Shown piece by piece: positions 2,230 through 18,792 of a DNA stretch of 64,000 bases. Below the pieces are notes generated by a model, which had not been told where the DNA came from, made no database searches, and worked only from the letters and a program-made list of their open reading frames with translations. The position numbers and the translations under genes were made by a program. This DNA comes from an uncultured Clostridia bacterium (GTDB lineage: Bacteria; CAYTYR01; UBA6262). The stretch spans positions 194,754 through 258,753 of the forward strand of contig CAYTYR010000001.1 in assembly GCA_964441745.1 (NCBI GenBank), in the 5' to 3' direction. The first letter of the stretch is position 1. Each line of letters begins with the position of its first letter.

Positions 2230-3972
2230 TTATTCGTTAATCAGACTATATAAATAGTCGACCAATCTTTTCTTCCTATTTTCAACAAATTCACCATAAC
2301 TCAACTTCTTTTTATAAATACCTTTCCATAGAAAATGCTTATCGAGATTCTTACAGCACTCTTTATTTAGATAATCATATGGGGACTGCTTTTTGATTTC
2401 CTCATTTGTTTTATCCGTAATAAGCATTCTATTAATAATAATATTCAGATCAGATTCTTCTATATCTTTTACTTCAACGCATTTCTTAGGGTAAATATGG
2501 TGGTCATGTAAGATAGAGTCTGCTAAGTACTCATGAGAATAGATATCTTCTGCCCCATTGATTAGTGGCATACATAAGATTGCTTTGTACCTCGCATCTC
2601 CCGATGAATTGATATCATCTATTCTCTCTTTAATCATTCCTTTGGATAGCCAAAACTTAATATCTGATGGTATCTTCTCCCTTTTGCCAATTTGGATATA
2701 CTGCCTCAAAAGGCAATAGTGGTCACTAACGGTGGTATCTGAATGTTTCTCATATGCCCTCGCAAAAATGCTCCCCCAATACCAGTGTTTTATTTTTTCT
2801 TTAAATCCTGCCTTATACTTTTCATCATACTCCTTATAAACATCTATCCACCACAATATAGCTGCCAACGTAACAATCATAGGTGTATACGGAATATACT
2901 TCTTTTGACATGCCCCAAAATCCCATCTTAACTTTTTAAGTGCTTTTGCCGTATATAAGCATGCGTGGTCCCAGTCTTCTTTAAAATCTTTTCTGAATGA
3001 ATCCTTAGCTTTGCGCTCTGACCTTAGGTCGATATTGTATTTCTTCTGAACATTCTTCAAGTCTTTTTGCACGCATGTTGGATTATCGGAACCGTTCTTT
3101 GTCTGCCGGATCAATAGAAGTACTTTTAATAAATAGATCGGGTCTAAATCGTACTGCTTAAATACATCATGTTTTCTAAAACTATACTTCCACATCTCCC
3201 GTAAATTAATATGATATGCATTCACCCGCGCGCTTACTAGGTCAAATGCAGTCAAATCAGTGCCGGCCTCATTTAATAGCCTGAATATGTTGGTATGATC
3301 CTGCGGATTCAGCTTCCTTATTACATATTCCACGGGGCACTTATAATTTAAAATGCGCTTTCGCACATCGAGTACATTATTAATATATTTTTTGTGGATT
3401 TTAGCTTTTTTATCAAATGCTTTTACAAACCACTTTTTTATATATTTTTCACTCAAAATATATTCAACAGGTATTAGCTTATCTTTGCCTTGAAGCTCAT
3501 AATTCTCCCTATCATCTTCTTCTGTCGGCCGAGGAATAACAAAAGTAGGCTTATCTATATCTACTGGTAACCTATTAGGGTTTACCGTGATATCTAGGAA
3601 TATCTTGTATTTCTTGCCATCCCCCTCTAAGGAATCGCTTGGCCTAAAAGAACTCGGGGCATTCATTGTGTAAAGAAATGTCCTAAGTCGTTGTTGCCCA
3701 TCAATTACGTAGTATTTAGGTCGAAATGCATAGGCTTCCCTATTATTAAAAGAATTCCTCCCAAGATCAGTATTTTCCATGTAGCGAAGAAAAAGTAGTG
3801 TTCCTATAGGATAATGCCTGATGATACTCTCGACCAACATAGCCATTTGTTTTGGCTTCCAGACAAACTCTCTCTGAAAGCTTGGCAAACACACATAATC
3901 AGTCTTCATCTTTTTAATTAAGGAGTTAATTAATTCTGGCTTTACATCTTTCTCTTTACTTATTTTTGCCAT
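2230..3972 (-). CDS. GmrSD-family (DUF262 plus HNH-like DUF1524) restriction endonuclease
   Basis: LPSFQREFVW, YPIGTLL, VIDGQQRL, IFRLLN, then C-terminal DHHIYPK...NRMLITDKTN. Confidence 0.85.
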   Translation of the reverse strand: MAKISKEKDVKPELINSLIKKMKTDYVCLPSFQREFVWKPKQMAMLVESIIRHYPIGTLLFLRYMENTDLGRNSFNNREAYAFRPKYYVIDGQQRLRTFLYTMNAPSSFRPSDSLEGDGKKYKIFLDITVNPNRLPVDIDKPTFVIPRPTEEDDRENYELQGKDKLIPVEYILSEKYIKKWFVKAFDKKAKIHKKYINNVLDVRKRILNYKCPVEYVIRKLNPQDHTNIFRLLNEAGTDLTAFDLVSARVNAYHINLREMWKYSFRKHDVFKQYDLDPIYLLKVLLLIRQTKNGSDNPTCVQKDLKNVQKKYNIDLRSERKAKDSFRKDFKEDWDHACLYTAKALKKLRWDFGACQKKYIPYTPMIVTLAAILWWIDVYKEYDEKYKAGFKEKIKHWYWGSIFARAYEKHSDTTVSDHYCLLRQYIQIGKREKIPSDIKFWLSKGMIKERIDDINSSGDARYKAILCMPLINGAEDIYSHEYLADSILHDHHIYPKKCVEVKDIEESDLNIIINRMLITDKTNEEIKKQSPYDYLNKECCKNLDKHFLWKGIYKKKLSYGEFVENRKKRLVDYLYSLINE

Positions 3973-4084
3973 TATGTGCACACTCTTCTTTTATAATAAA
4001 CAGGATCTTTGGAAACTTAAGATTTCTCGGGGCAAAGCACTCATTGTAAATAAATGAGTATCGTGTCCCCTGATATGGTGCGTT

Positions 4085-4555
4085 CTAATAATGAACACCT
4101 TCGGCAAGCATAAATTCTTCAAGACAGATACATTTTACTTTAAAATCTTGACATACATTTGGGATACGTGCGGCAGCCCCAGTCTTTAACTTTTCCTCCG
4201 TGACTATAATCGCATTATGGACCCTCGCCGCAGCTATGAGGAAAGGATCGGATACAGGCTTTCCTTTAGATATTTTCTCAGATCTGACTAGATTTCTGTA
4301 TTGCTCCCTTTCAAACATTGTTTTGAGAAAATTCAGCTCTTCAGTATTTGGCGCAAGGAATATATATTTGTGTTTTCCAAGCCAATCAATAAGACGCTTA
4401 TCATGAGTATACTCTTGTAATTCTCTATACACTTCTCTTACAGAACGCAAACTTCCATTGTCCGATAGAGTATTAACTATGCTCCATACTGTAGGCATTA
4501 CGGGTGGATAATAATTTGCTAAGGCTCCAAATGAACTAGAATCAAAAATATACAT
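4085..4555 (-). CDS. PIN-domain protein (DUF4411-like)
   Basis: YIFDSS, VREVYRE, SDPFLIAAA, IVTEE, RIPNVC. Start overlaps the upstream stop codon. Confidence 0.85.
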   Translation of the reverse strand: MYIFDSSSFGALANYYPPVMPTVWSIVNTLSDNGSLRSVREVYRELQEYTHDKRLIDWLGKHKYIFLAPNTEELNFLKTMFEREQYRNLVRSEKISKGKPVSDPFLIAAARVHNAIIVTEEKLKTGAAARIPNVCQDFKVKCICLEEFMLAEGVHY

Positions 4556-5706
4556 TATTGCCGTCCTAAGTAACTCTCAAGATTATTGATGTAGCGAGCC
4601 TTAATATTAAGATGAGAAGCGAGATCGGCTTTGTTAATACGCTTACTGTAATAATTGGTGAATGCCAATGTAGCAAACCCCTCACCAACATATGCCAAAC
4701 GAGTGCGATAGTAGTCGCCACTGGATTTCACATTTTTTCTGGCACGCAGGTAATCTTCATTCCATTCCTTTGACTTCTTTTCATAGATTTCCTGACTTAC
4801 CTTCTTTTTATCTAATAATTTGCGGAGGATGACTTCACGACTGACTGAATACCTTTCTGCTAAATGAGCAACTATATCATCATTTATCGTTTCTATTCCT
4901 TTTATATCCTTCATAAATTGTTCCTCTGGCACTAATACCTCAGCTGCAAAATTATTACATTTAATTTCAAGCCTTTGTTCACTATCTATCATTTCACTGA
5001 TATAATTCTCGTTGATGTCAGTTACTCCATTTACTCCAACTAGAATGTGCCCCAGTTCATGTATAAGAGTAAATACTTGACGGGAAAAGGCGGTTGAATT
5101 ATTAATCATAATTACGGGAAATTCTTCGTCTAGCAAGCTGAATCCGGATATGAAACGATCTTCAAATGAATCTTTAAAAGTAAATATGCCTGATTCTTCT
5201 AACATATGACGACAATATTTAAACATTTGTTCTGGGGAATGAAAGGAAAATTGCTTTGAAATGCTCAACCCAATTCGTTCACGTATTAAATTAGATAGTT
5301 CCTTAATAGAATAATCTACTACTTTTATTTCGCGAAATATTAGCCTAACTGGCTTGCTATCTGTTATCAATTTTTTCAGTGAAGCCTGGTAATTCATTCC
5401 TAAACGTAACATAAAAAAAGTATCAGAGCTAAATCTCCTTATTTCACTTTCGGGAAGTCTACGGAATTTATGTACTGGGTCCTCTATTTTTGGAGGCTTT
5501 GGAAAGAAGAACACAGCTAAAGGTATCCTGAGATGTTTATATGCTAAATCTTCCAAACAAGTAAATGAAGGGAAATCAGCTCCAGTTTCCCACATACTAA
5601 TCTCTTCTGGACTGCGATGCATCCTTTGGGCAAGTTCCTCTATAGAAATCCGACTACGCTCTCTTGCCCAGGTAATTATTCTTGGATTAATGCTTTCAAC
5701 TTTCAT
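4555..5706 (-). CDS. XRE HTH plus ImmA/IrrE-family metallopeptidase
   Basis: N-terminal HTH (WARERSRISIEELA...ISMWETG), RQVFTLIHELGH (HExxH), EIKCNNFAAEVLVP. Confidence 0.9.
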   Translation of the reverse strand: MKVESINPRIITWARERSRISIEELAQRMHRSPEEISMWETGADFPSFTCLEDLAYKHLRIPLAVFFFPKPPKIEDPVHKFRRLPESEIRRFSSDTFFMLRLGMNYQASLKKLITDSKPVRLIFREIKVVDYSIKELSNLIRERIGLSISKQFSFHSPEQMFKYCRHMLEESGIFTFKDSFEDRFISGFSLLDEEFPVIMINNSTAFSRQVFTLIHELGHILVGVNGVTDINENYISEMIDSEQRLEIKCNNFAAEVLVPEEQFMKDIKGIETINDDIVAHLAERYSVSREVILRKLLDKKKVSQEIYEKKSKEWNEDYLRARKNVKSSGDYYRTRLAYVGEGFATLAFTNYYSKRINKADLASHLNIKARYINNLESYLGRQ

Positions 5707-5830: not shown

Positions 5831-6556
5831 TTAATAGCTCCAGTTTTCATGTCGAAGGGGTATTCGATTCAATCCTTCTTTATAGAATCGCCACTTCGCC
5901 AAGAACTGATCCATGAGGGCAACAAATCTTTCATTGTGGCGTCGTTCCAGAAGGTGAGTCATCTCATGGACTACTATGTATTCAATATATTCTTTGGGCT
6001 TCTTTGCTAATTCGAGATTCAGCCATATCCGCTTCGGGACTCTACTACATGTACCCCACCGAGTCCGCATCTTCCTTATTCCAAACTTGTTCACCTTAAC
6101 ATTCATTATTTTTTCGTATTGAGAGATTATCCCGGGTATAATCTCTTTCAAGTTTTGGCGGTACCACTCGTCTAATATTTCCTGCCTCTTCTTCAGTCCT
6201 GTGTTTGGCCGAATAAACATCTCCATTGTTTCGTGCTTTATAGTTACCTTTGGCGGAGCGTTATGCTCTATCACGCACAACAGATAGCGTTTGCCCAGGT
6301 AGTAATGACTTTCTCTTGTTATGCATTCCCTTGGAGCCTCTCTTACTTGATTGCGAAACTTATTTTGCTGTTTCTTAATCCAGCTCAGCTTTGAGATAGC
6401 GAACACCCTGATGGTATCCATATCCATACGCAGGGGTGCGGCTATCCTCACTCTGCCGGATGGCGGATAAACACTCAGATGTACATTTTTAATGTCTTTC
6501 TGCGCCACATCAACAGAAATATCACCCAACATTATCTGCTTCATCTCAATACTCAT
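5831..6556 (-). CDS. M48/YgjP (DUF45) metal-dependent hydrolase associated with type I R-M
   Basis: MRTRWGTC, EYIVVHEMTHL...HNERF. Overlaps the hsdR stop. Confidence 0.9.
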   Translation of the reverse strand: MSIEMKQIMLGDISVDVAQKDIKNVHLSVYPPSGRVRIAAPLRMDMDTIRVFAISKLSWIKKQQNKFRNQVREAPRECITRESHYYLGKRYLLCVIEHNAPPKVTIKHETMEMFIRPNTGLKKRQEILDEWYRQNLKEIIPGIISQYEKIMNVKVNKFGIRKMRTRWGTCSRVPKRIWLNLELAKKPKEYIEYIVVHEMTHLLERRHNERFVALMDQFLAKWRFYKEGLNRIPLRHENWSY

Positions 6557-9500
6557 TTTGTTGTTTTATAATTTGAAAGATTCTTTCAACTTCATCTTTG
6601 TCGTGCAGTACTTCATATATAGCTTGTTTGATCAAATTTTCGCTTGGGATGTTACCCCGCCAATCAGCTCTCCTGCTAGAATATACTGCGTCATTCACTA
6701 ATCCTGCCGATTTCGCACTATTCCCAAGATTGTGATACAGTGCACGTTGTGCATTTGTCTTTATTTCTGCAGGCAGATCGTCTTGAGCAGGATTCGTCAC
6801 TCTTTTTGCAAGTTCGGCAATCTTTTTCAAATACTCTTCATATGAAATAGCGTTCTCTTTTCTTTCTTTAATAATTGCACTTAGGAGCTTGGACATCTCA
6901 TCAAAGTACGCCGGGTCAATTAAATGATCTTTAATAATTTTGGCTCTTACATTTCCAGCAATCGTTTCAGCGACCGCTTCTTTGCTACTTCTTATTCCTT
7001 CGGGAAGATTATTAATTGCCTCGGCAATGCCGCTATTTATCATAATATCAAGCAATGACTGATCACCAAACGGATCAATCCGCCTACTATCTTCCGCTTG
7101 AATATAGGTATCAATCAGGTGTCGCATATCGGCCTCATAGGTTTTAAGGTCTAGTTTTTCACCGCTCGCCATACGAATCTCTTCTCTCAATTTCAAATAT
7201 TTATCAACCTTATTTTCTATCATTTCAATTTCACCAGCACTGTATCCGGCTTCACTCATCTCGTCCGCAATATTAGCGTAGGATCGTACCAATCCAACCG
7301 CATGCTTGTAGAGCGCGGTTCTCTTCATTTCGCTATCTTTCAAGTCTTGTTTATTTTCCGGGTTACCACAAAAATAATGGATGTGCGCCAAACTATCTTT
7401 TGGCGGCAATACAGGCTCACAAACCAAAGCTATGGCCTCAAGTGCATCATCTAATCGCTCCTTGCCTTTGGCTAAACGATCTTTCAGTAGAATATCTATA
7501 TCTTTCTTTTCAAAAGTCTCACAATCCAATTCAGAAGCGTAAACCGAATAGGCGCCTTCTAACTTTGTGAATAGATCTTTATAATCCACGATATATCCGA
7601 AATCCTTATCTTCACTATCCAAGCGATTCACACGACAGATAGCCTGAAATAGCCCATGATCTTGCATTTTCTTGTCTATATACAAATAGGTACAAGGCGG
7701 CGCATCAAAACCAACCAGGAGCTTATCCACCACAATGAGCAGTTTCATATTTGCCGGCTCTTTGATAAATATTGTCCTGGCTTTGTCCTCGTAGGTTTCT
7801 GATTTTGATTTGCCTGGCTCTGGAGATATCTCTTTTAGTAAATCGGAGTATACTTTATACACATACTCCTTCTCAGTCTCAGTATTTTCACCCGTTCCTT
7901 CGGTAGCAATGTCTTTGGTGGCAGGATTATACGAAGTAATCAGAGCGCATCTGCCTTTAAGTGATGTATTTTGAAACAGCTCAAAATAACGCGTTGCTTC
8001 ATAAATACTTCCCGCAATCAAAATCGCATTTCCAAATTCAGAGTTAAGCCGTGGTTTTGTGCTAAAGTCAAATACTACATCTTGCACGATTTTTTCCAAC
8101 CGTGATTTGGAACTCAATACCTGTTGCATCGTGCCCCATTTTCTTTTCAGTTCATGCTTTTGGAAATCATTAAGCCCTTTGGTTTTGGCTTCAAACCACG
8201 CATCCACTCTTTCCTTAGAAGAAAGCCTCGTATCAATATCACGTGCCTCATACATCAGATCCAAAACTACGCCGTCCTCCACTGCTTCATTAAATTTATA
8301 GGTGTGAATATACCTGCCAAATACTTGTTGGCTCGTTTGCTTATCTTTCTTAAGCAGAGGTGTTCCGGTAAAGCCGATAAATACGGCGTTCTTTAAAATC
8401 GCTTTCATTACCTTGTGCATCTTCCCTGATTCAGAGCGATGACACTCATCCACAAATACAAACAGTTCACCCACAGTATTACTCGGACCACTCTTCAGTT
8501 CTTCAATATAAGCATCAAAATTATCTACACCACGAGCGCCGAATTTATGAATGAGAGAACAAAGCAGGCGAGGCAAAGGATTATTCAATTGCTCCATCAA
8601 ATCCTTGCCGCTTGTTGTGCGCTTAATTTCTCTTTCACCGGCTTCATGGAATACGCGCTCTATCTGCTTATCCAGCTCAATCCGATCAGTCAAAATTACC
8701 ACACGCGCATTGGGATTGTTTTCTAGTATCCACTTAGCAAGCCAGACCATAATCAAACTCTTGCCACTTCCTTGGGTGTGCCAAATAATTCCGCCTTCGC
8801 GCCTGCGAACAAAATCCTGCGCAACTTTGATGCCAAAATACTGATGTGTTCTAGGTAGTTTCTTAATCCCACAATCAAATAATACAAAGTTATACAATAT
8901 TTCTAAAAGTCTTTTTTTATCGCACATCTTGAGCAAGTATTTATCTAGCTGAAGCATACTATCGTCTTGCTCGTCTTCTTTCCATTTCAAAAAATACTTT
9001 TCTGGCGTAAGAATAGTCCCATATCTCAAACCTTCAGTATCGTTGCCGGCAAAAACGAATTGGATCGTAGAAAAAAATGATTGGATAAACTCTTTTTGTT
9101 GATTGACGATGTTCTGCCGGATACCATCACCAACAGACACAACGCTTCTTTTGAGCTCCAATACGCCAAGGGCGATGCCGTTCACATACAAAACAATGTC
9201 GGGCCGTTTTTCACGATTGCCTTGAATCGTTACCTCTTCAGCAATAGCAAAATTATTCTTTTCTGGATTTTCCCAATCAATCAGCTTCACTTGTTGATTA
9301 TTTTCACCGGCATTTTCTACAACGCCAATCCCATAGCGAAGTAATTTATAAATGTTTTGATTATTGGTGTAGAGGTTTTCAGTGAAGTTGTTGGCAGCAG
9401 TGCGAAGTTTATCCAATGCTCGCGCAATCAAGGTATCGCTATATCCACGGCTGGACAGATATTTCCTCACCTCTGATTCTTCGATATTGGTATTATCCGG

Positions 9501-9602
9501 TCGATCCGCCCAGTTGCCAAGGTAGTCATATTTAAGCCGCTCTCGAAACAACTCAATCACGCGGTTTTGGGTGATGCGCTCAATGTTGCCGATGTTATTC
9601 AT
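6546..9602 (-). CDS. hsdR: type I restriction enzyme subunit R
   Basis: RPDIVLYVNG...LELK nuclease, WHTQGSGKS, DECHRS, GFTGTP, QAICRVNR. Start moved to ATG 9602 (GGAG SD, coupled to the herA stop). Confidence 0.95.
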   Translation of the reverse strand: MNNIGNIERITQNRVIELFRERLKYDYLGNWADRPDNTNIEESEVRKYLSSRGYSDTLIARALDKLRTAANNFTENLYTNNQNIYKLLRYGIGVVENAGENNQQVKLIDWENPEKNNFAIAEEVTIQGNREKRPDIVLYVNGIALGVLELKRSVVSVGDGIRQNIVNQQKEFIQSFFSTIQFVFAGNDTEGLRYGTILTPEKYFLKWKEDEQDDSMLQLDKYLLKMCDKKRLLEILYNFVLFDCGIKKLPRTHQYFGIKVAQDFVRRREGGIIWHTQGSGKSLIMVWLAKWILENNPNARVVILTDRIELDKQIERVFHEAGEREIKRTTSGKDLMEQLNNPLPRLLCSLIHKFGARGVDNFDAYIEELKSGPSNTVGELFVFVDECHRSESGKMHKVMKAILKNAVFIGFTGTPLLKKDKQTSQQVFGRYIHTYKFNEAVEDGVVLDLMYEARDIDTRLSSKERVDAWFEAKTKGLNDFQKHELKRKWGTMQQVLSSKSRLEKIVQDVVFDFSTKPRLNSEFGNAILIAGSIYEATRYFELFQNTSLKGRCALITSYNPATKDIATEGTGENTETEKEYVYKVYSDLLKEISPEPGKSKSETYEDKARTIFIKEPANMKLLIVVDKLLVGFDAPPCTYLYIDKKMQDHGLFQAICRVNRLDSEDKDFGYIVDYKDLFTKLEGAYSVYASELDCETFEKKDIDILLKDRLAKGKERLDDALEAIALVCEPVLPPKDSLAHIHYFCGNPENKQDLKDSEMKRTALYKHAVGLVRSYANIADEMSEAGYSAGEIEMIENKVDKYLKLREEIRMASGEKLDLKTYEADMRHLIDTYIQAEDSRRIDPFGDQSLLDIMINSGIAEAINNLPEGIRSSKEAVAETIAGNVRAKIIKDHLIDPAYFDEMSKLLSAIIKERKENAISYEEYLKKIAELAKRVTNPAQDDLPAEIKTNAQRALYHNLGNSAKSAGLVNDAVYSSRRADWRGNIPSENLIKQAIYEVLHDKDEVERIFQIIKQQNEY

Positions 9603-11736
9603 GGGCATCTCCTGCCACGTTTTCCCCTGACTCAACACGGGAATCGTCAGTATTTGTTTTTGCGGATTGCTGCCAATCATCAGCAATCTTTTTCCAGTCA
9701 GCCGATCTTTCACTTTCACCAGTCCAGACATCCCAGAAATCAGGATCATCAGACTGAGGTTGTTGTTCTTTGGGCAAGTGATTCATGCGAACCAACACAG
9801 GAAGCTCCGAAGCCCAGCCAAGGAGAATTGCATTCTGTGATGGTAAAGAGGGTAAGTCTCTTAAAAGACCCCTCAAATTATCAGGAACAAGTTTATTCAC
9901 TAATTCCTGATCATGGTCATTACTGATACGATGCAATAAGAATGTATTACATTGAGATAGCACTGTAGGAGATAGTTCTGAAGGTCGTTGAGAGGACAGA
10001 ACTAATCCAAGACCAAACTTACGCCCTTCACGGGCTATCTTTTCAAAAACCTGACAACACATTGAAGACGCATCCTGGTTTTCTGTATCTTCTTTGTATC
10101 TCTTTACAAAGGTATGTGCTTCTTCCATTACCAAAACAGTGGGCAATGTTTTATGTTCAGCGTGTAATTTGCGATACCGTTGTAAAGCTTCAAATGTCAT
10201 ACGTGCAATCACGGCTGTTATAATGTGAATAATTTCGGGGGGCACTAAGGAAAGGTCCAAAATAGTAACAGTTCCATTTTCAGCATTATTGCTCCCAATA
10301 TGTTCAGTTAGCCAACCATCCAGAGTTTCACTGGACTCTCCAGTAATGGTTTTCATTCGTGTATCAGAAAGCATTGTACGGATACGCATAACAAGAAAAT
10401 CTGTGTATTGGGTAACATTTTCTTGAATAGAAAGTTGCTGAATATGATCAGCAAATGCAACTCCATCAAAAGCTATTGGGCAATCTTCCTCTGGGCCTTC
10501 TTGATATATAATTCCACCAAGCTTATCAATCAAGACAATACATGCGTCAATAATATTCTTAACAACCAGCTCAGTAAAAGCACTATAGTATTCGACATCT
10601 TTTTGAGTTTGCTTATCCTTAAATGTTTTGAAGGTTGCACGCAACGTATTATCAATTTGGGATTTAATATTGGCCATCTCTGATGTATATTCTGGAAAAG
10701 ATGGAATCTTATTATTAACATCCTCTCCAACTGCTTTAAGTCGAAACCCGAACTTTGTTTCCTCTGACTTTAACGCGCCACTTCGTAAATCACGTTGGAT
10801 AGATATGAGAACTGTTGACAGATATCGACGGAGTTCCAGGCTTTGCTCTTCATTTGTTTGAGTGGCGGAAATGACATGCCCAGATTTGATTTCCCTCAAT
10901 GCTCTTTTTAGCAGCGGTCGCTGTGTCTTCCCACTTGCCTGAGTAAAAGCGGACCATTCAGCGCTATTCCAGAACCAAAGAGGCACTTGCAATTGTTTTA
11001 AAGTGTCTTTTGTGTCAACCGAATATATTCGCGCATTTTTAAAATCTTTAAACGCTCGGGAATATTCGCCATTCGGATCAAGCACAATAAACCTAGCATT
11101 TGCTTTACTCTCATTTTTTTCAACAGCCTCTAAACACCAACGAATCAATCCTGCGACTGAACACGATTTCCCGCTTCCAGTATTACCCAAGACTGCCAAA
11201 TGACGACCAAATAAGCGATCAGGATCAATAAGCACATTTGCATTGCCTGCCAAAGGACTTGTGCCGATTTTGACTCTTCGTTTATCGCCAGATTCGACAA
11301 TTGATCGCAACTGTATTTGGGTAGGAAGAATAACACTATCCCCAACTGACGGAAATACTTCTACCCCACGACGAAATTTGAAAAGGTGATCACCTTTATC
11401 ATCCTTACCATCAAAAGATAACGTACCTAACGGATTCAAACTCATTTTACGTAATGGATACGGCAAATCAACTAAACCGAAATCCTGCATTCCTTTGCGT
11501 TTGGGGTATTGCGATCGTTCTATTGTGATCCACTCAACCTGTCCAACCAAGTATCCTTCATCACTAGGAATAAGCACATAGTTGTTGATGCGCGGAAACG
11601 CACGTGGAGTGCCAGTATTTAATGCAACCGAATCTGGAGCTTCTATATCAAGTAATACTTTGATTTCATCAGGGGAAACAAAATCAATTGTACCAATTCG
11701 AAGTGAATCAGCATAAGCAAAAGGGGAAATAGTCAT
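9595..11736 (-). CDS. HerA-like ATPase (DUF87, N-terminal HAS barrel)
   Basis: GNTGSGKS, VLDPNGEY, VMEEAH, IAREGRKFG, SQRP. Confidence 0.9.
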   Translation of the reverse strand: MTISPFAYADSLRIGTIDFVSPDEIKVLLDIEAPDSVALNTGTPRAFPRINNYVLIPSDEGYLVGQVEWITIERSQYPKRKGMQDFGLVDLPYPLRKMSLNPLGTLSFDGKDDKGDHLFKFRRGVEVFPSVGDSVILPTQIQLRSIVESGDKRRVKIGTSPLAGNANVLIDPDRLFGRHLAVLGNTGSGKSCSVAGLIRWCLEAVEKNESKANARFIVLDPNGEYSRAFKDFKNARIYSVDTKDTLKQLQVPLWFWNSAEWSAFTQASGKTQRPLLKRALREIKSGHVISATQTNEEQSLELRRYLSTVLISIQRDLRSGALKSEETKFGFRLKAVGEDVNNKIPSFPEYTSEMANIKSQIDNTLRATFKTFKDKQTQKDVEYYSAFTELVVKNIIDACIVLIDKLGGIIYQEGPEEDCPIAFDGVAFADHIQQLSIQENVTQYTDFLVMRIRTMLSDTRMKTITGESSETLDGWLTEHIGSNNAENGTVTILDLSLVPPEIIHIITAVIARMTFEALQRYRKLHAEHKTLPTVLVMEEAHTFVKRYKEDTENQDASSMCCQVFEKIAREGRKFGLGLVLSSQRPSELSPTVLSQCNTFLLHRISNDHDQELVNKLVPDNLRGLLRDLPSLPSQNAILLGWASELPVLVRMNHLPKEQQPQSDDPDFWDVWTGESERSADWKKIADDWQQSAKTNTDDSRVESGENVAGDAHE

Positions 11737-13097
11737 TTATCTCCTTCTAGTTCTTTTCTGCCCGTTTCACTTTGTTGTGTCCCGAAACGAGACCTTAGGA
11801 TTTCACTCATTCGAAAGGTCGCACGATCAATTGCTGATTTTGGCAGGTACTGATCAACAAGGGTTTTAAAGTCGCCCAAGTGGTTTCCAATAAGCAAGGT
11901 AATTTGCGAAGGCCTGCCAAGCTTATCATAGGTTCTCATAATTCGATCTAGCTTGTCATCATAGGAAATTACAACTAAGTGTGTTGAAGGAATGGTTAAC
12001 ATGTCTTCAATAGAACGGTTGATATGTTCATCCCCAAAGCTGTAGCCATAAGTTATTAAGGCACTATTGGGCCGGCAGACTCCAGCTGCAAAATCACGAA
12101 AAAGTTCTACATATGGATACTCAGAAGTTTCCCGGTCCTTTGACGCATTAGGATAAATCATTACATTGTGGGCAGTGGCGCCAGCAAGTGCTGGTGCTTT
12201 CAAAAAGGGATCGAGGGTTTTAGCACCAAAAGGAAGTCCTATACGCCGAATTTCTTCACCACACTGAACCCAATCAATAGAACCATGCAATTTTACAAAA
12301 CGGGCAACGCCCTCTAAGTAACGAGGTTCACCGCGAATTCCTGGGGGATTGTAATGCATATCTAAATCAAGACGCGATGACCGAAAAATGGGCATCAGGC
12401 TACCAACAAAACGATCCAAAAGATGAAGCCCAGCAATTTCTGCTCCTGCTTCAATAAGTCGGTCGTAATTAGTAGTAAAAATTTGTAAACGATCGCTCGT
12501 ACCTGTACGACTGGCAAAACTCATTAGAAAGTTCACAAGTATATTAAAAGCTTCAATACGTATTGATTCTTCGGCACAAGCAATACCAGATTCACTGACC
12601 AAAATTGATTGTGCGAAATCATTTAACTTCTTTTCAATTTCGGTTTGCAGCTTAATATTTTTCTTTTTATTTGGAGACAATATTTCTAGTCCGCGCAGGA
12701 GTTCATTGGATACACGAATCTGATCTTCGAAGTTGCCTTCCTTACGCCCGGCTTTTTCTGCTGAAACTTTGGCAATAGCAGCAATTTTATCGTTGTACAT
12801 AGAAAAGACACTAGTGCCCATATCTGTAGCAACTGGCCCCCCGACAAGATGGTGTATAGCATGGGTCAACCCGGAACCAATCAACAGAGACAAATGTTCC
12901 GATTGAAAAAGCGAGGTCAGCCATGGCTCTATGCGCGGACGGAGTTCTTTAATCCCGAACTCTTTATCTTTTTCAATCCAAGCACAATCAGAATCGCCGA
13001 TAATCTTAAATTTCCCGGGCTCACCATCAAATTGAACGGGAGAATGGTCTTCGCGTGTTTTGATAATATTAGGCTGCTGAGTTTTTTCTGCTGTCAT
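11733..13097 (-). CDS. SIR2-family protein (putative NADase)
   Basis: LLIGSG, FTTNYDRLIE, KLHGSIDW, GYSFGDEHIN. Confidence 0.9.
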   Translation of the reverse strand: MTAEKTQQPNIIKTREDHSPVQFDGEPGKFKIIGDSDCAWIEKDKEFGIKELRPRIEPWLTSLFQSEHLSLLIGSGLTHAIHHLVGGPVATDMGTSVFSMYNDKIAAIAKVSAEKAGRKEGNFEDQIRVSNELLRGLEILSPNKKKNIKLQTEIEKKLNDFAQSILVSESGIACAEESIRIEAFNILVNFLMSFASRTGTSDRLQIFTTNYDRLIEAGAEIAGLHLLDRFVGSLMPIFRSSRLDLDMHYNPPGIRGEPRYLEGVARFVKLHGSIDWVQCGEEIRRIGLPFGAKTLDPFLKAPALAGATAHNVMIYPNASKDRETSEYPYVELFRDFAAGVCRPNSALITYGYSFGDEHINRSIEDMLTIPSTHLVVISYDDKLDRIMRTYDKLGRPSQITLLIGNHLGDFKTLVDQYLPKSAIDRATFRMSEILRSRFGTQQSETGRKELEGDK

Positions 13098-14275
13098 TTT
13101 ATACCCCCATATGATTCTGGTTTTACCAACCTCGTTTTGCCAGTTAGCAATTCCTGCATCATGCCCTGCTTGAGCATGATGTATTTATTGCGCTTTTGCG
13201 CCAAGCTCTCAATCTCGGCATCCATATCGGAGAGAATGGCAGCGATTGCTGATTGTTCTGTTTTGTCTTTTGGAATAAATAATTCTAATTCGTTCAAACT
13301 CTTCTTTTGAATATTTGGTAAACCCGAACCAATTCTCAAACCCATAATTGATTTTTCTTTGAATTTTAAAAATTGATATAAAAATCCTTTATCTAAATCA
13401 GTATTTATAATTTTTAATGCATAACAATGCCCGCCTAACCAGAAGTTAGTTTTACAATAATTAACAAAACCGCAGGAATTACCACCTTCGCTTATTGTAA
13501 TTGTGTTTTCAACCATATTCCATTTATCTGTATAACCTGATGTTTCAATTCCACCGTTCCAATCGGGGTATTCTCCTGATGCAGTTAATTCTGACTTGTT
13601 TAACTGCTCTCCCTTCTTTATTTCTGTTATGCTACCAAAAACATTAGTCTCCCACTCACCGCTAAAACCTGGCAATCTTCTTTTGCCAGTGAGGAGTTGT
13701 TGCCCCGTGCCTTGTTTGATGGCTTTCTTTTTGGCGATCAGTTTTTCCAAGTGTTCAATCAGCACATCAGTGTTGGAGAGAACAGTCGCAATAAAGGATT
13801 GTTCGGATTTAGTCGGGGGTAATGGAATGCAATATTTAGCAACTGACATACCAGTTAATTGAGGAATACCACCACTTTCTGAAAATATTTTTACTTTATG
13901 ATTAATATATTCAGTTAAAAATGTTGCATCAATATTTTTATCTGGAAATAAAACAAGCAATCTGCCAATTGCACTATAACCACCACTTCTTGAAAATGCG
14001 GTTCCCAATCCAACCCCTCTACCCACAATGGTTAAACTGTCTCCATTATATTCTGCAACATCATAATAACCATATAACCCATAATTTGAAACTGTGTTTG
14101 AATAAACAGGATATTTGAATTTATCATCTTGATATGTAGAATAGTTCTCTTCTTTCAAATCTCTTCCTACTGAAATGGAAGTAAAAGAACCTACTGGTTT
14201 CACTTCCCAATCCTCTGGGATTACTCCCAGATCTGTTTTCTTATAACCTTTTTTAATCGTTGCGGCTGTTACCAT
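13094..14275 (-). CDS. hsdS: type I R-M specificity subunit S
   Basis: IPEDWEV and two TRDs separated by PPTKSEQ...MQ(Q/E)LLTGK-type conserved helices. Confidence 0.95.
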   Translation of the reverse strand: MVTAATIKKGYKKTDLGVIPEDWEVKPVGSFTSISVGRDLKEENYSTYQDDKFKYPVYSNTVSNYGLYGYYDVAEYNGDSLTIVGRGVGLGTAFSRSGGYSAIGRLLVLFPDKNIDATFLTEYINHKVKIFSESGGIPQLTGMSVAKYCIPLPPTKSEQSFIATVLSNTDVLIEHLEKLIAKKKAIKQGTGQQLLTGKRRLPGFSGEWETNVFGSITEIKKGEQLNKSELTASGEYPDWNGGIETSGYTDKWNMVENTITISEGGNSCGFVNYCKTNFWLGGHCYALKIINTDLDKGFLYQFLKFKEKSIMGLRIGSGLPNIQKKSLNELELFIPKDKTEQSAIAAILSDMDAEIESLAQKRNKYIMLKQGMMQELLTGKTRLVKPESYGGIK

Positions 14276-16644
14276 AAAAATCCCATCTTTTTAAGATGTG
14301 CCTCTACTTTACTAGTAAGAGTTTCGGCTTCGCTAATGAGTATTGGCAATGGTGTGGCATACCGCTCGGCAAGTTCTTTAATACGCTGGGTCAGGCGTTG
14401 GCTGATGCGATCCATTTCGCCCTTGACTGCCTGCTCTAGAGTTGCCATCCATTTGTCATCTACTACCAAAATCTTAATCTCTGATTCGGTAAGTGCCTTG
14501 TATTTAGCGATTACCTTGTCATCAAGCGCCTTTTCGGCTTCTTTAATTTCTTTCTTTTCTTTAGATATTTGTTCTCCAAGCGCAAGACACTCTTCCATTA
14601 CTTTCAGCTCTGCAGCATCGTCTTTATTACCTTTGATTTCATTAATTCTACTTGTTACACTCGCTTTGTTTATTTTTTCAAAATCAGTAAAATATCCGTC
14701 ATCTCCGCCATTTTCTTCAATGAGTTCTTCAATTTCTCGGATGGTGTTATCAAGTTTGTCTTGTAGCTCTACTATTGTCTGCTTTTCACTGGCAAAATAG
14801 CGGTTGATAACCAAATATTTGGGTGCGAGGTCGCATTCTCCTTCGCCTTTTTTCCCTTCTACTGGATCAAGCTCTGCCTTCCATCCATCAACGGCAATCA
14901 GATACATATCGTCTTGCATTGTCTCTGCCCAATACCCCATCAAATGCTGATAAATATCGTACTTATCAATTAAATTAGTTTTGCTGAATGCCGACAAAAT
15001 ATCCTCAGATATTCTATGGATAATTTCCTTTGGTTTTGCTCCAACGGTCAATTTCTTAAGAAGAACTGTATTCTTTTCTTTCCAAGCGGCAAAAGTCGCT
15101 TCCATTACTTTGGCGTATTTGGTAAATTCTGGATGTGAAAAAATGGCATGCTTGATTTCTTCCTGTGCGATCTTGAGCTTGCTGTATCCCTTTCTCTTAC
15201 TCTTACCAAGAAGCGAGGTTTTGAGGGTCGGATACACGCTCCAGTAGTTTTGTAAATCTTCAATATCTTGAGTTGGAATGTCACCCTTAAGATGTGCTTC
15301 AATGTCTTGAATGTCTTCGGCTTCTTGACTGTCTATGTAGCGAGGAATATTAAGGTTAAATTCATTCTTCTCAATCTCGACCACACTAACCATGCGCGAG
15401 TATTTTGGGATTTCCAGTTGTTTATTAAATACATCTACAATCTTATGAATATCCTGGGCACGCAAGCGGTTCTTGTTACCATCCTTTACAAAGCCCATGC
15501 CCGCATCAATCATAAAAATCCCTTTGCGGCTATCAGCATTTTCTTTGTCAAGAACGATGATACACGCAGGAATACCAGTGCCATAGAAAAGGTTGGCTGG
15601 TAGTCCGATAATACCCTTAATATAGCCACGGGATATAAGGTTGGTGCGAATCCCTGCTTCAGCATTGCCACGAAAGAGCACGCCATGAGGGAGAATACAT
15701 GCGCCTTTTCCAGTAGTTTTCAGTGAACGAATAATATGAAGAAGAAAAGCATAGTCGCCATTTTTGGGAGGCGGAGTGCCAAAATCCTGAAACCTTCCGA
15801 ACACATCATGTACAGGATCAACGCCATTGCTCCATGATTTGAACGAGAACGGAGGGTTAGCTATGACAAAATCAAAGGTCTTGAGTTGACTGCCATCTTT
15901 GAAAAGCGGGGTTGAAAGAGTATTTTCTCTTTCAATTACCGAAGTTGGATTGTTATGTAAAATCATGTTCATCCGCGCCAAAGCTGCAGTGGCATTATCC
16001 ATTTCCTGACCGTAAAGTTTAACATTTTTATCTGTTTCATCCGCTACTTTCAAAAGTAAAGAACCAGAACCGCAAGTAGGATCATAAACGGTTGGAGTCT
16101 CGTTTGTCGTACTAGCAATACCAATGGTCTTGGCGATTATACGACTCACTTCCGCAGGCGTATAGAATTGTCCTTTGCTCTTACCGCTCTCGGTGGCGAA
16201 GTGTTTCATTAAATATTCATAAGCATCCCCTAGAATATCATCACCTTCAGCGCGGTTTTTACTAAAATCCAGTGCAGGGTTTTCAAAAATAGCGATCAAA
16301 TTGGAGAGTTTCTTGACCATGTCTGGACCACTGCCCAGCTTTTCCGCATTGTTAAAGTCAGGCATCTCTGAAAGCTTATTGGCTTCGGCGATGGGTGCAA
16401 TTATTTTCTTATTGATATCGTCGCCAATAGTCGTCTTACCTTTAAGCGCCACCATATCCTTAAAGCTTGAACCATTAGGGATAGTGATGGGAGCATAGGG
16501 TACGCCAACATATTTATCAGAGATATATTTAATAAACAACAAAACCAGAACATAGTCTTTGTACTGGGAGGCGTCCATCCCACCCCTAAGTTCATCGCAG
16601 CTTTTCCAAATTGAACTATAGAGTTGTGATTTTTTGATTGCCAT
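14269..16644 (-). CDS. hsdM: type I R-M N6-adenine methyltransferase subunit M
   Basis: GQFYTP, YDPTCGSG, ANPPF, PHGVLFRG. Confidence 0.95.
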   Translation of the reverse strand: MAIKKSQLYSSIWKSCDELRGGMDASQYKDYVLVLLFIKYISDKYVGVPYAPITIPNGSSFKDMVALKGKTTIGDDINKKIIAPIAEANKLSEMPDFNNAEKLGSGPDMVKKLSNLIAIFENPALDFSKNRAEGDDILGDAYEYLMKHFATESGKSKGQFYTPAEVSRIIAKTIGIASTTNETPTVYDPTCGSGSLLLKVADETDKNVKLYGQEMDNATAALARMNMILHNNPTSVIERENTLSTPLFKDGSQLKTFDFVIANPPFSFKSWSNGVDPVHDVFGRFQDFGTPPPKNGDYAFLLHIIRSLKTTGKGACILPHGVLFRGNAEAGIRTNLISRGYIKGIIGLPANLFYGTGIPACIIVLDKENADSRKGIFMIDAGMGFVKDGNKNRLRAQDIHKIVDVFNKQLEIPKYSRMVSVVEIEKNEFNLNIPRYIDSQEAEDIQDIEAHLKGDIPTQDIEDLQNYWSVYPTLKTSLLGKSKRKGYSKLKIAQEEIKHAIFSHPEFTKYAKVMEATFAAWKEKNTVLLKKLTVGAKPKEIIHRISEDILSAFSKTNLIDKYDIYQHLMGYWAETMQDDMYLIAVDGWKAELDPVEGKKGEGECDLAPKYLVINRYFASEKQTIVELQDKLDNTIREIEELIEENGGDDGYFTDFEKINKASVTSRINEIKGNKDDAAELKVMEECLALGEQISKEKKEIKEAEKALDDKVIAKYKALTESEIKILVVDDKWMATLEQAVKGEMDRISQRLTQRIKELAERYATPLPILISEAETLTSKVEAHLKKMGFLW

Positions 16645-16740: not shown

Positions 16741-16944
16741 TTACTCTTCCAGAAAAAAGCCAGCGGATTTTTTGAGGACCTTGGCTATTTTGACTAAGGT
16801 TTCGATTGATGGCACAGAGATTCCTGTTTCATATCGGGAAATGCTTTTTTGCTTTGCAGTGATCTTTTGTGCAAGCTGAGTCTGAGTTAGATCAAGCTCT
16901 ACACGGGCCAGCTTAATTTTTTTACCTAGTTTTTTGGCATCCAT
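16741..16944 (-). CDS. XRE-family HTH regulator
   Basis: LTQTQLA...ISRYETG...PSIETLVKIA. Start ATG 16944 follows an AGAGG SD. Confidence 0.85.
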   Translation of the reverse strand: MDAKKLGKKIKLARVELDLTQTQLAQKITAKQKSISRYETGISVPSIETLVKIAKVLKKSAGFFLEE

Positions 16945-16979
16945 AAGTCCTCTTTTTTGAAATAGCTTGAAAATAATCC

Positions 16980-17088
16980 TTGACAACAATATACCCTGAA
17001 AGGTATAATATAGTCATCTAAAGGGGTATATACTTTTTCTAATATACCTTCAAGGCAATAATATATGCCTATTTTGCAATAAATGCAA
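16980..17088. promoter_or_regulatory. convergent sigma70 promoters with repeated palindromic operators
   Basis: Plus: TTGACA-18-TATAAT (16980-17009). Minus: TTGCAT-17-TATATT (17088-17060). TATACC-N6-GGTATA at 16990-17007, variant at 17043-17060, half-site to 17030. Confidence 0.65.
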
Positions 17089-17098
17089 GGACTTTTTA

Positions 17099-17290
17099 AT
17101 GAGCGTTTTGGCAGTTGAGGAAAATATAAAACCAGAGATACATGAAGTCAGTTTAGACTGGCAGGATAATCCTGCCGTTCAAAAACTGTTAGATGTTGTT
17201 GTTTCTATTATTGCCGAAGAATATATCCAGATAGCAAAGAAGAATCCAGAGGTATTTACAAATAATCAAGGGGGTGTGAAATGCGAGTAG
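17099..17290 (+). CDS. small hypothetical protein overlapping the recombinase start
   Basis: 63-aa ORF downstream of the consensus promoter, with AAGGA SD. Confidence 0.55.
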   Translation: MSVLAVEENIKPEIHEVSLDWQDNPAVQKLLDVVVSIIAEEYIQIAKKNPEVFTNNQGGVKCE

Positions 17291-18606
17291 CCATTTATGC
17301 GAGGTATTCATCGGAGAACCAAAGCGAGAAAAGCATTGATGATCAAATAAGGGTATGCAAAAACTATATCCTGGCCAATGGGATGAGCTTTGAAGAGAAG
17401 CATATATACACTGATGCGGCTATTTCCGGCTCTATCGTAAACCGTCCGGGACTACAAGCCATGGAGAAAGCCGCTGAAAACAAGGAGTTTGAGGCTGTAG
17501 CCGTAGATGATCTATCAAGGTTATCAAGAAGTAATCACCAAATGCTGACCTTAGTCCTTAATTTTAACTATCATCAGATAAAGCTAATCTCTGTATCTGA
17601 TGGGATCATTGCCGATGATGACAACTCCAAGCTTGGCATTCACATCCGGGGCCTTATGAATGAGCTCTATCTTGATGACCTTAAGAAAAAGACTATGCGC
17701 GGGCTGGAAGGACAGAAAATAAGGGGCTTTAGCGTAGGGGAAAAGGTCTATGGATACTATACTGAGCCGGTTGGGGAATTAAAGCTGGATAAAAGAGGCC
17801 AGCCTAAATATGAAGGCAGAGTGCACAAGATAAATATTGAGCAAGCGGATATAGTCAAGAGGGTCTATAAGGAATTTGTTGATGGAAAAAGCCTATATGC
17901 CATAGTAAATGGCCTTAATAGTGATAAAACCCCTACTAAAAGAGGCTATCCTGGGGGTTGGAATATATCCAGCCTAAGCCGAATCTTGAAGAATGAGAAG
18001 TATACCGGCCTATGGATATGGAGAAAATGGAAAAATGTCAGGGATCCTATGTCCGGGAAGGTAAAAAAGGTAGATAGGTCAAAAGAAGAGCAAATAGCCA
18101 GGTTTAATGAACATTTGGCTATAATTGATAAAGAAACCTGGGAAAAAGCCCAGGCAAGATGGGGTATTCTCCAGGGAGCCTGGCCAGTAAGAAAGAGCTC
18201 TCTTAATAAAGGAGTGGTCCAAAAAAGCTATGTGCACGCCACCCCTTCTCACTTATTATCGGGTATCATGAAATGTCATGCCTGTGGTGGCGCTATTGTG
18301 CTTATTAGCGGTAAAGGCAGCGGGTACTATGGTTGCGCCTATAATGCTAAAAGAAAAACCTGTAATAATACCCTGCTGGTGCCGCGAATACGCATTGAGC
18401 AAGCTATAATAGCAGACCTAAAAGCAAAGATATTGACCGCGGAAAACGTAGCCTATATATATAAGAATGTAGAAAAAGTAGCTGCCAAAGGACTAAACGA
18501 GGTTCCTGAGCTTATTAAGAAAAAGAAGGCCCAAGCTGATAAGTTGCTATTGGAAATACAGAATTATCTGAATTACATTAAATGGGATTTAGACCCTATT
18601 ACATGA
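17281..18606 (+). CDS. large serine recombinase, probably C-terminally truncated
   Basis: AIYARYSS catalytic Ser, RPGL, DDLSRLSR, recombinase domain, CHACG...YYGC zinc ribbon. Ends abruptly inside the coiled coil. Confidence 0.9.
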   Translation: MRVAIYARYSSENQSEKSIDDQIRVCKNYILANGMSFEEKHIYTDAAISGSIVNRPGLQAMEKAAENKEFEAVAVDDLSRLSRSNHQMLTLVLNFNYHQIKLISVSDGIIADDDNSKLGIHIRGLMNELYLDDLKKKTMRGLEGQKIRGFSVGEKVYGYYTEPVGELKLDKRGQPKYEGRVHKINIEQADIVKRVYKEFVDGKSLYAIVNGLNSDKTPTKRGYPGGWNISSLSRILKNEKYTGLWIWRKWKNVRDPMSGKVKKVDRSKEEQIARFNEHLAIIDKETWEKAQARWGILQGAWPVRKSSLNKGVVQKSYVHATPSHLLSGIMKCHACGGAIVLISGKGSGYYGCAYNAKRKTCNNTLLVPRIRIEQAIIADLKAKILTAENVAYIYKNVEKVAAKGLNEVPELIKKKKAQADKLLLEIQNYLNYIKWDLDPIT

Positions 18607-18702: not shown

Positions 18703-18792
18703 TGGCGGAGGCGGAAGGATTCGAACCTTCGGTCCAGTTACCCAGACTCCGGTTTTCAAGACCGGTGCACTCAACCGCTATGCGACGCCTCC
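18703..18792 (-). tRNA. tRNA-Ser(UGA)
   Basis: GGAGGCG acceptor, CCGGT-CTTGAAA-ACCGG anticodon arm, long variable arm, GGTTCGAATCC, encoded CCA. Confidence 0.95.

Follow-up and report, generated by a model that had tools for sequence, protein, structure and literature searches.

Introduction

In Sir2-HerA anti-phage systems, a Sir2 dodecamer is assembled on a HerA hexamer, and infection sets off depletion of nicotinamide adenine dinucleotide (NAD+) and growth arrest. Both outcomes are described in the available text of three studies (PMC13434337, PMC11514289, PMC11472057). For the Escherichia coli type III Sir2-HerA system, the triggers named in the available part of PMC13434337 are the phage single-stranded DNA-binding protein Gp2.5 and the DNA-mimic RecBCD inhibitor Gp5.9, and exposed DNA ends are reported there to drive the ATPase of the complex, lifting an ATP block on the NADase. 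Here, we analysed a 64,000-nt stretch of DNA from an uncultured Clostridia bacterium (the window; contig CAYTYR010000001.1, positions 194,754 to 258,753), in which a Sir2-HerA gene pair lies between hsdS and hsdR of a type I restriction-modification (R-M) operon. We consider it probable that this locus is an RRDM-family type I R-M operon (regulator, hsdM, hsdS, cargo, hsdR, M48) with a self-sufficient Sir2-HerA abortive-infection module in the cargo slot.

The RRDM island of enteropathogenic E. coli (EPEC) comprises genes for RptR, HsdM, HsdS, DarT, DarG, HsdR and an M48 peptidase, for which the accession WP_001122107.1 is given; DarTG2 fills the slot between hsdS and hsdR, the island protects against phages, and the hsdS-hsdR site is called a potential recombination hotspot for defence systems, according to the available sections of PMC12255303. 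PrrC is latent on EcoprrI and is activated by a T4 inhibitor of EcoprrI (as stated in the available portion of PMC1484252), and prrC is described in the accessible part of PMC3458546 as always linked to an R-M locus. In Vibrio cholerae, TgvAB is embedded in the VPI-2 type I R-M cluster, and when cloned alone it protects, though less than the whole cluster against several phages (PMC11411939).

Results

A Sir2-HerA pair within an intact run of hsd genes

The six-frame open reading frame (ORF) list and the Pfam and PADLOC scans gave, on the minus strand of the window, the order helix-turn-helix (HTH) regulator, hsdM, hsdS, sir2, herA, hsdR and M48 peptidase, with all genes intact. The XRE-type regulator (16741..16989; Pfam HTH_3 8.6e-15) lies directly upstream of hsdM, and its likely start is the ATG at 16944. 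The type I methyltransferase subunit gene hsdM (14269..16644, 791 aa) matched N6_Mtase (1.8e-100) and HsdM_N, as well as the PADLOC model MTase_I PDLC03027 over 1-810 of its 810 positions, and the specificity subunit gene hsdS (13094..14275, 393 aa) matched Methylase_S (3.3e-40) in two stretches and PADLOC Specificity_I (2.2e-80). Then follow sir2 (11733..13097, 454 aa), for the predicted NADase effector of the pair, with matches to SIR2_2 (1.5e-07) and PADLOC SIR2 PDLC04079 (2.7e-157), and herA (9595..11736, 713 aa), for its ring ATPase partner, with matches to DUF87 (9.5e-25) and to PADLOC HerA PDLC04098 (5.2e-271) over 4-685 of 686 positions. The restriction subunit gene hsdR (6546..9602, 1018 aa from the ATG at 9602) carries HSDR_N, SWI2_SNF2 and T1R_D3-like domains and matched PADLOC REase_I PDLC03044 at E = 0, and a YgjP-like/M48-family metallopeptidase gene (5831..6556; YgjP-like 1.5e-58) is the last of the operon backbone.

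When the junctions were read directly, the stop codon of hsdS and the start codon of sir2 were found to share ATGA at 13094-13097, the stop of sir2 and the start of herA share ATGA at 11733-11736, and the stop of herA overlaps the start of hsdR in ATGAATAA at 9595-9602. The hsdM/hsdS overlap lies at 14269-14275 and the hsdR/M48 overlap at 6546-6556. Because the genes are intact and co-oriented and their stop and start codons overlap, the gene string is most likely one transcript with translational coupling. The longest hsdR ORF starts at 9749; the PADLOC model begins at its residue 50, and the alignment with E. coli HsdR begins at the ATG at 9602, so this ATG is probably the start of hsdR.

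We then compared the catalytic motifs. In Sir2, the motifs FTTNYD, KLHGS and GYSFGDEHINR were invariant across 24 relatives and aligned to the solved Sir2 8j4u_A; the residues concerned are N210 and D212 in FTTNYD and H271 in KLHGS, and this Asn/Asp pair and His are what we take to be the catalytic residues of Sir2. HerA carries a Walker A motif (GNTGSGKS) and a Walker B motif (VLVMEEAH), both aligned to the solved HerA 8wiv_A. Alignments to the E. coli counterparts placed PD...ELK, TQGSGKS and DECH in HsdR, DPTCGSG and NPPF in HsdM, and HEMTH in the M48 peptidase. As judged from these alignments, the motif matches are far beyond chance. An earlier reading of the letters alone, hereafter the sequence-only reading, had named the same gene order and gene identities, the three overlapping junctions around sir2, herA and hsdR, and intact catalytic motifs; all of these were borne out by the ORF list, the domain scans, the junctions as read and the alignments of Sir2, HerA, HsdR, HsdM and M48, and its 1018-aa hsdR is likely right by the PADLOC model and the E. 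coli HsdR alignment.

Taken together, the window holds adjacent, co-oriented sir2 and herA genes, with the active-site motifs in Sir2 and a HerA/FtsK-type ATPase with Walker A and B, as in Sir2-HerA systems. The genes around them encode HsdM, HsdS and HsdR at full length, the methylase, nuclease and helicase motifs being present, and end with M48, as in an RRDM-family type I operon.

The backbone is shared with an E. coli island

When complete E. coli genomes were searched at the DNA level with the window hsdR, 276 of 5426 held relatives, and three of the 282 matching records were opened. Two of the three were annotated with an HTH-like protein, hsdM, hsdS, darT, darG, hsdR and M48; the third held an hsdR truncated by an insertion sequence (IS), together with M48. 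Over their full length, the window proteins are 50% (HsdR), 55% (HsdM) and 42% (M48, WP_001122107.1) identical to those of the E. coli RRDM-type operon. The possibility that the HTH gene upstream of hsdM is an RptR homologue was ruled out, with BLASTP giving E = 1.1 between the 82-aa HTH_3 protein and E. coli RptR. With the TAGCTA-type palindromes of the RptR promoter in mind, inspection by eye of the 100 nt upstream showed one TATATA, unremarkable in AT-rich DNA. By gene order and protein homology, the window has the RRDM architecture with another regulator and another cargo.

Relatives of the pair lie in type I, type III and BREX loci

We further studied where relatives of the Sir2-HerA pair are found. 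Of 8000 candidates scored against the Sir2 protein, 6981 reached E <= 1e-10, and among the matches listed, the 119 best non-self hits were 65-80% identical, with names including Methylomonas, Pseudomonas, Burkholderia, Xanthomonas and Bordetella. A scan of a genome collection with the single Sir2 protein gave at least one locus, L001, in which Sir2 and HerA are 80% and 88% identical to those of the window and the HsdR N-terminus is 72% identical. L001 keeps the hsdS-sir2-herA-hsdR order with overlapping junctions. A metagenome scan with an alignment of 24 Sir2 sequences gave 493 relatives; the 80 top-scoring ones were retained, making 81 related loci with L001. Genes in these loci were called crudely, three neighbours per side were clustered (320 proteins, 180 clusters), and the cluster representatives were annotated by Pfam and PADLOC. 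This clustering was used in place of tblastn with the window Hsd proteins, which was too insensitive (hsd relatives in 9 of the 81 loci). Contexts were counted by script, and 78 of the 81 loci could be assessed, with at least 300 nt of flank on at least one side.

The pairing itself is conserved: 80 of the 81 loci carry herA after sir2, and only L007, a contig of 1.6 kb, does not. Genes of type I, type III or bacteriophage exclusion (BREX) systems lay within three genes of the pair in 54 of the 78 assessable loci (type I in 16, type III in 18 and BREX in 20), and none were found there in the other 24. The type I tally includes L057, whose methylase is on the opposite strand and three genes off. 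In 28 of the 78 loci, genes of a single system lay on both sides of the pair (type I in 4, type III in 10, BREX in 14). When only loci with at least 3 kb on both sides were counted (n = 28), a methylation-system gene was present in 24, with both-side flanking in 16, and absent in 4.

The pair occupies recurrent slots within these hosts. Type I loci carry it after hsdS, the position seen in the window, or after hsdM. In type III loci, its neighbours are an SNF2 helicase-DUF4391 pair on one side and mod-res on the other, and in BREX type 1 loci it separates the N-terminal from the C-terminal half of a split pglX. Other occupants of these slots are Shedu, HEC-01/02, RhuM, DUF2130, YhcG-like and AlbA_2/Schlafen proteins. 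Tight junctions are not confined to the type I hosts: in the type III locus L005, herA ends at 13467 and mod starts at 13466.

Two of these layouts were seen repeatedly. A split pglX serves as a cargo slot in the BREX type 1 loci L009, L035, L038, L051, L062, L063, L072 and L075, where the PglX halves are two genes whose N half matches 1-623 of 1174 and whose C half matches 621-1172 (for example, L038:5824-7683 and L038:13487-15265); in these loci, Sir2-HerA is often accompanied by Shedu, HEC-02 or AlbA_2 genes. The recurrent type III layout is HTH_17, SNF2 helicase (~1100 aa), DUF4391, the Sir2-HerA pair, mod and res, found in L005, L008, L010, L016, L020, L023, L025, L026 and L034, and the Sir2 proteins of this layout fall in one clade of 11 type III-linked rows.

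The pair moves between hosts and also stands alone

A quick maximum-likelihood tree was built from 80 Sir2 sequences, leaving out L028 and L058, in which the gene caller found no Sir2 frame. The host-system label was clustered on this tree yet changed often, with 26 changes against a shuffled mean of 45.0 and none of 200 shuffles as low; of these changes, type I accounts for at least 8, BREX for 13 and type III for 5. The window Sir2 joins those of L001 (type I) and L003 at a support of 99, and this trio stands apart from the main type I-rich clade. L003 has the order RhuM-DUF2130-Sir2-HerA and is without hsd genes in 10 kb upstream or 8 kb downstream. Across contexts, Sir2 identity was 62-80%, and there was no type I-specific clade. 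A Sir2-HerA clade co-evolving specifically with type I systems was thereby ruled out by the Sir2 tree.

The clade was also found in 80 of 5426 E. coli genomes, and 61 of the 87 places were on plasmids. Six of the 84 matching records were opened, with 7-8 kb shown per side, and annotated restriction genes were near Sir2-HerA in none of these six contexts. The pair lay in two Tn3-family transposons, in an IS26-bounded resolvase unit, in a P2-like prophage between ogr and tail genes, after traN of a conjugative region, and in a tRNA-Phe island. By annotation, a 154-aa "methyltransferase family protein" was nearby in one context and a 225-aa "endonuclease" in one. All six inspected E. coli copies were without annotated restriction genes; therefore, Sir2-HerA can live without R-M genes. 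The clade of the Sir2-HerA pair is very abundant and conserved and, on the evidence of the tree and these contexts, behaves as portable cargo.

The cassette lies in a variable island beside tRNA-Ser

We compared the window with related genomes of the same phylum. From 16726/16741 to ~18586, the window shares 90-91% DNA identity with the sister genomes G004 and G006; this stretch holds the HTH gene and a large serine recombinase gene at the island edge (17281..18606, plus strand; Resolvase, Recombinase and Zn_ribbon_recom). In both genomes, tRNA-Ser and serS come next to this shared stretch; in the window, tRNA-Ser is at 18703..18792 on the minus strand (ARAGORN). The hsd-sir2-herA region was unmatched in G004 and G006. 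In the corresponding G004 region (L087, G004:C16, 9719-17003), what comes after the HTH gene is an unrelated type I cassette without cargo, which encodes an HsdM of 484 aa, an HsdS of 399 aa and an HsdR of 766 aa with EcoEI_R_C; AbiV-like and AlbA_2 proteins come next. Homology between the window and the sister genomes breaks at the HTH stop codon, and the cassettes look as if they had been swapped at this fixed boundary.

A Sir2 of the window clade was found in only one of nine genomes of the host phylum. The GC content of the island genes is 36-43%, compared with 44.6% for the genome, and their tetranucleotide distance falls in the upper 1-6% of background windows, while the region around serS is typical. 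Upstream of the window, a further 20 kb (L096, G000:C1:174754-194753) carry IS110, IS21, RhuM, AbiEi/AbiEii, a second HTH-IrrE gene, a Cas4-like protein, a PD-(D/E)XK nuclease and a TIR protein. Because these 20 kb are defence and mobilome DNA, of which only the first 1.6 kb are conserved in G006, they suggest a variable defence island of ~35 kb. By composition and distribution, the defence island that holds the whole cassette, next to tRNA-Ser and a serine recombinase, is variable and was acquired horizontally.

Other genes of the island lie on the minus strand beyond the M48 gene (Pfam/PADLOC). An HTH-IrrE/M78 gene (4555..5706) and a DUF4411 gene, PIN-like (4085..4555), form a pair that follows the operon at 4085-5706; a like pair is found inside a type I operon after hsdS in L039:5586-7232, and the second HTH-IrrE gene of the island, 20 kb upstream, is at L096:13185-14375. 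A 583-aa GmrSD_N/HEC-05-like (BrxU-like) type IV restriction protein is encoded at 2230..3981; it is likely a modification-dependent type IV restriction enzyme, which would complement the type I system in the island. A perfect 12/12 match to a sigma-70-type promoter (TTGACA, 18 nt, TATAAT) is found at 16980-17009 on the plus strand, facing the recombinase gene and back to back with the HTH upstream region, in a window whose overall promoter scan was at chance level. Two short stretches of the window, 1152-1205 and 1343-1489, are 98-100% identical to the ends of contigs C2, C20, C28, C31 and C32 of the same assembly and probably mark the termini of a repeated insertion element at which the assembly breaks. 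In another sister genome, G005, a contig of 2.2 kb without a long ORF (L088, G005:C15:1-2196) carries hsdM-like pieces 75-78% identical to the window, with an 89% match to a short stretch upstream of hsdM, and looks like a decayed copy of the window hsdM family.

Discussion

A probable autonomous passenger and rival readings

We take the locus to be an ordinary example of layered defence and not a new system. The type I R-M enzyme would cut incoming unmethylated DNA, and phages that escape it would meet Sir2-HerA, which would sense infection independently and deplete NAD+, so that the infected cell would stop growing. Nesting would then give co-regulation and co-transfer of two complementary layers, rather than physical guarding of the Hsd complex. 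For the activity and mechanism of the window pair, we infer from published work on other Sir2-HerA systems. Several points weigh against this explanation. The solved Sir2-HerA proteins are only distant relatives, with 74.7 bits for Sir2 to 8j4u_A and 178.7 bits for HerA to 8wiv_A. The metagenome loci, as the best 80 of 493 matches, are a non-random sample, and they include the near-duplicates L064 and L066 and L069 and L070. The high embedded share (54 of 78 loci, and 24 of the 28 with at least 3 kb of flank on both sides), for which there is no baseline from other defence systems, could reflect a functional tie beyond co-transfer. Moreover, promoter and terminator scans of the window were no better than chance (47 against 37.2 expected, and 9 against 9.5, with shuffled controls), and therefore the single transcript is argued from the overlaps only.

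The sequence-only reading had proposed that Sir2-HerA guards the R-M complex, drawing on PrrC, and that a survey finding the homologs mostly outside R-M loci would speak against it. Its analogy with PrrC was apt for the slot, which Sir2-HerA fills as PrrC does, and translational coupling to hsdS and hsdR would favour co-assembly, with Sir2-HerA held latent on HsdMSR and released when a phage inhibitor disables the enzyme. The survey placed 54 of the 78 loci beside methylation-based systems, so in this metagenome sample the clade is not mostly outside R-M, but only 16 of the 78 had type I genes within three genes, and linkage to type I R-M loci is thus not obligate. Linkage is facultative, the type I, type III and BREX hosts have no structural relationship to one another, the pair switches between them on the Sir2 tree, the window Sir2 groups at 99 support with that of the hsd-free locus L003 (over the 10 kb upstream and 8 kb downstream), Sir2 is 62-80% identical across contexts without a type I-specific clade, and none of the six inspected E. 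coli copies has an annotated R-M gene nearby. The proposed guarding therefore found no specific support, and we regard a PrrC-type guard as improbable. A functional coupling without binding has rather more in its favour, though we still think it unlikely: the clade would be a specialised second line for methylation-based restriction, triggered by DNA mimics that counter restriction (Ocr, ArdA, Gp5.9-like) or by the DNA ends that restriction leaves. It would account for the lodging of the pair in internal slots of three unrelated systems (hsdS-hsdR or hsdM-hsdS in type I, DUF4391-mod in type III, split pglX in BREX), for the 54 of 78 loci beside such systems and the 28 flanked on both sides by one of them, and for tight junctions in those hosts too, as in L005; it also agrees with the triggering of the E. 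coli type III system by the DNA mimic Gp5.9 and the relief of its ATP checkpoint by DNA ends, as reported in the available text of PMC13434337. However, all six inspected E. coli copies stand alone in mobile elements, the same slots also take Shedu, HEC-01/02, RhuM, DUF2130 and AlbA_2 proteins, and published work describes a general tendency of these systems to harbour embedded defence genes of many kinds (in the accessible portions of 10.1101/2024.01.29.577857 and PMC12629846). Least probable of all, in our estimate, is that the pair is an inert or decaying insertion, a relic that separates hsdR from hsdMS and leaves one or both systems non-functional. In its favour, all that the sister genome G005 retains is hsdM-like remnants (75-78% identical), on a 2.2 kb contig that lacks long ORFs, but all window genes are full length against the models, all checked motifs are intact, and the junction overlaps are kept in the 80%-identical relative L001.

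Comparison with known systems

The sequence-only reading had rated the locus as a candidate for an undescribed system. This does not hold, since nesting in type I R-M operons is already published for DarTG2, TgvAB and PrrC and in the 'guilt-by-embedding' survey, and DarTG2 is nested in the same Hsd backbone family, as seen in the available part of PMC12255303. Each element of the locus has a precedent, whether nesting habit, slot, backbone or cargo. The words SIR2 and HerA are absent from the main text of the embedding survey (10.1101/2024.01.29.577857), whose supplements may list them, and no description of Sir2-HerA inside type I R-M or BREX was found in main texts, though supplements may list one. 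What the locus adds is Sir2-HerA as a further cargo in a type I R-M backbone and slot that are both documented. It also illustrates how whole defence cassettes would be exchanged at a hotspot beside tRNA-Ser and a serine recombinase, in a phylum that is small and little sampled (nine genomes in the collection searched). The wider point from the survey of relatives is that one conserved Sir2-HerA clade recurs inside type I, type III and BREX operons. If this recurrence reflects function beyond co-transfer, it would offer a testable model of an abortive module backing up restriction.

Among the described systems, PrrC in EcoprrI resembles the window in that an abortive-infection effector gene is nested among hsd genes. 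It differs in that PrrC is an ABC-ATPase/RNase, always R-M linked and silenced by the R-M enzyme (in the available text of PMC1484252 and PMC3458546), whereas the Sir2-HerA clade of the window is often without R-M genes or in other host systems. TgvAB and the cases of the 'guilt-by-embedding' survey (10.1101/2024.01.29.577857) share with the window a second defence system inside a type I R-M operon, in the same orientation; the TgvAB cargo is a GmrSD-like type IV restriction system, whereas the window cargo is a predicted NADase-ATPase abortive module.

The Sir2-HerA anti-phage systems (Nezha; E. coli types I-III; Paenibacillus and S. aureus; PDB 8j4u, 8su9 and 8wld) share with the window the adjacency of sir2 and herA, the active-site motifs of Sir2 and the Walker motifs of HerA, and the top PADLOC SIR2 and HerA models were matched nearly end to end, while the solved proteins are distant in sequence from the window's pair (74.7 and 178.7 bits). 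Compared with the RRDM island, the window has the same order of genes, the same cargo slot between hsdS and hsdR, a homologous Hsd/M48 backbone and a gene for a small DNA-binding protein immediately upstream of hsdM. The two differ in the regulator, which in the window is an XRE HTH_3 protein unrelated to RptR; in the junctions, which overlap in the window and are 12-18 nt gaps in the E. coli annotation; and in the cargo, which is the DarTG2 toxin-antitoxin pair in the island and Sir2-HerA in the window.

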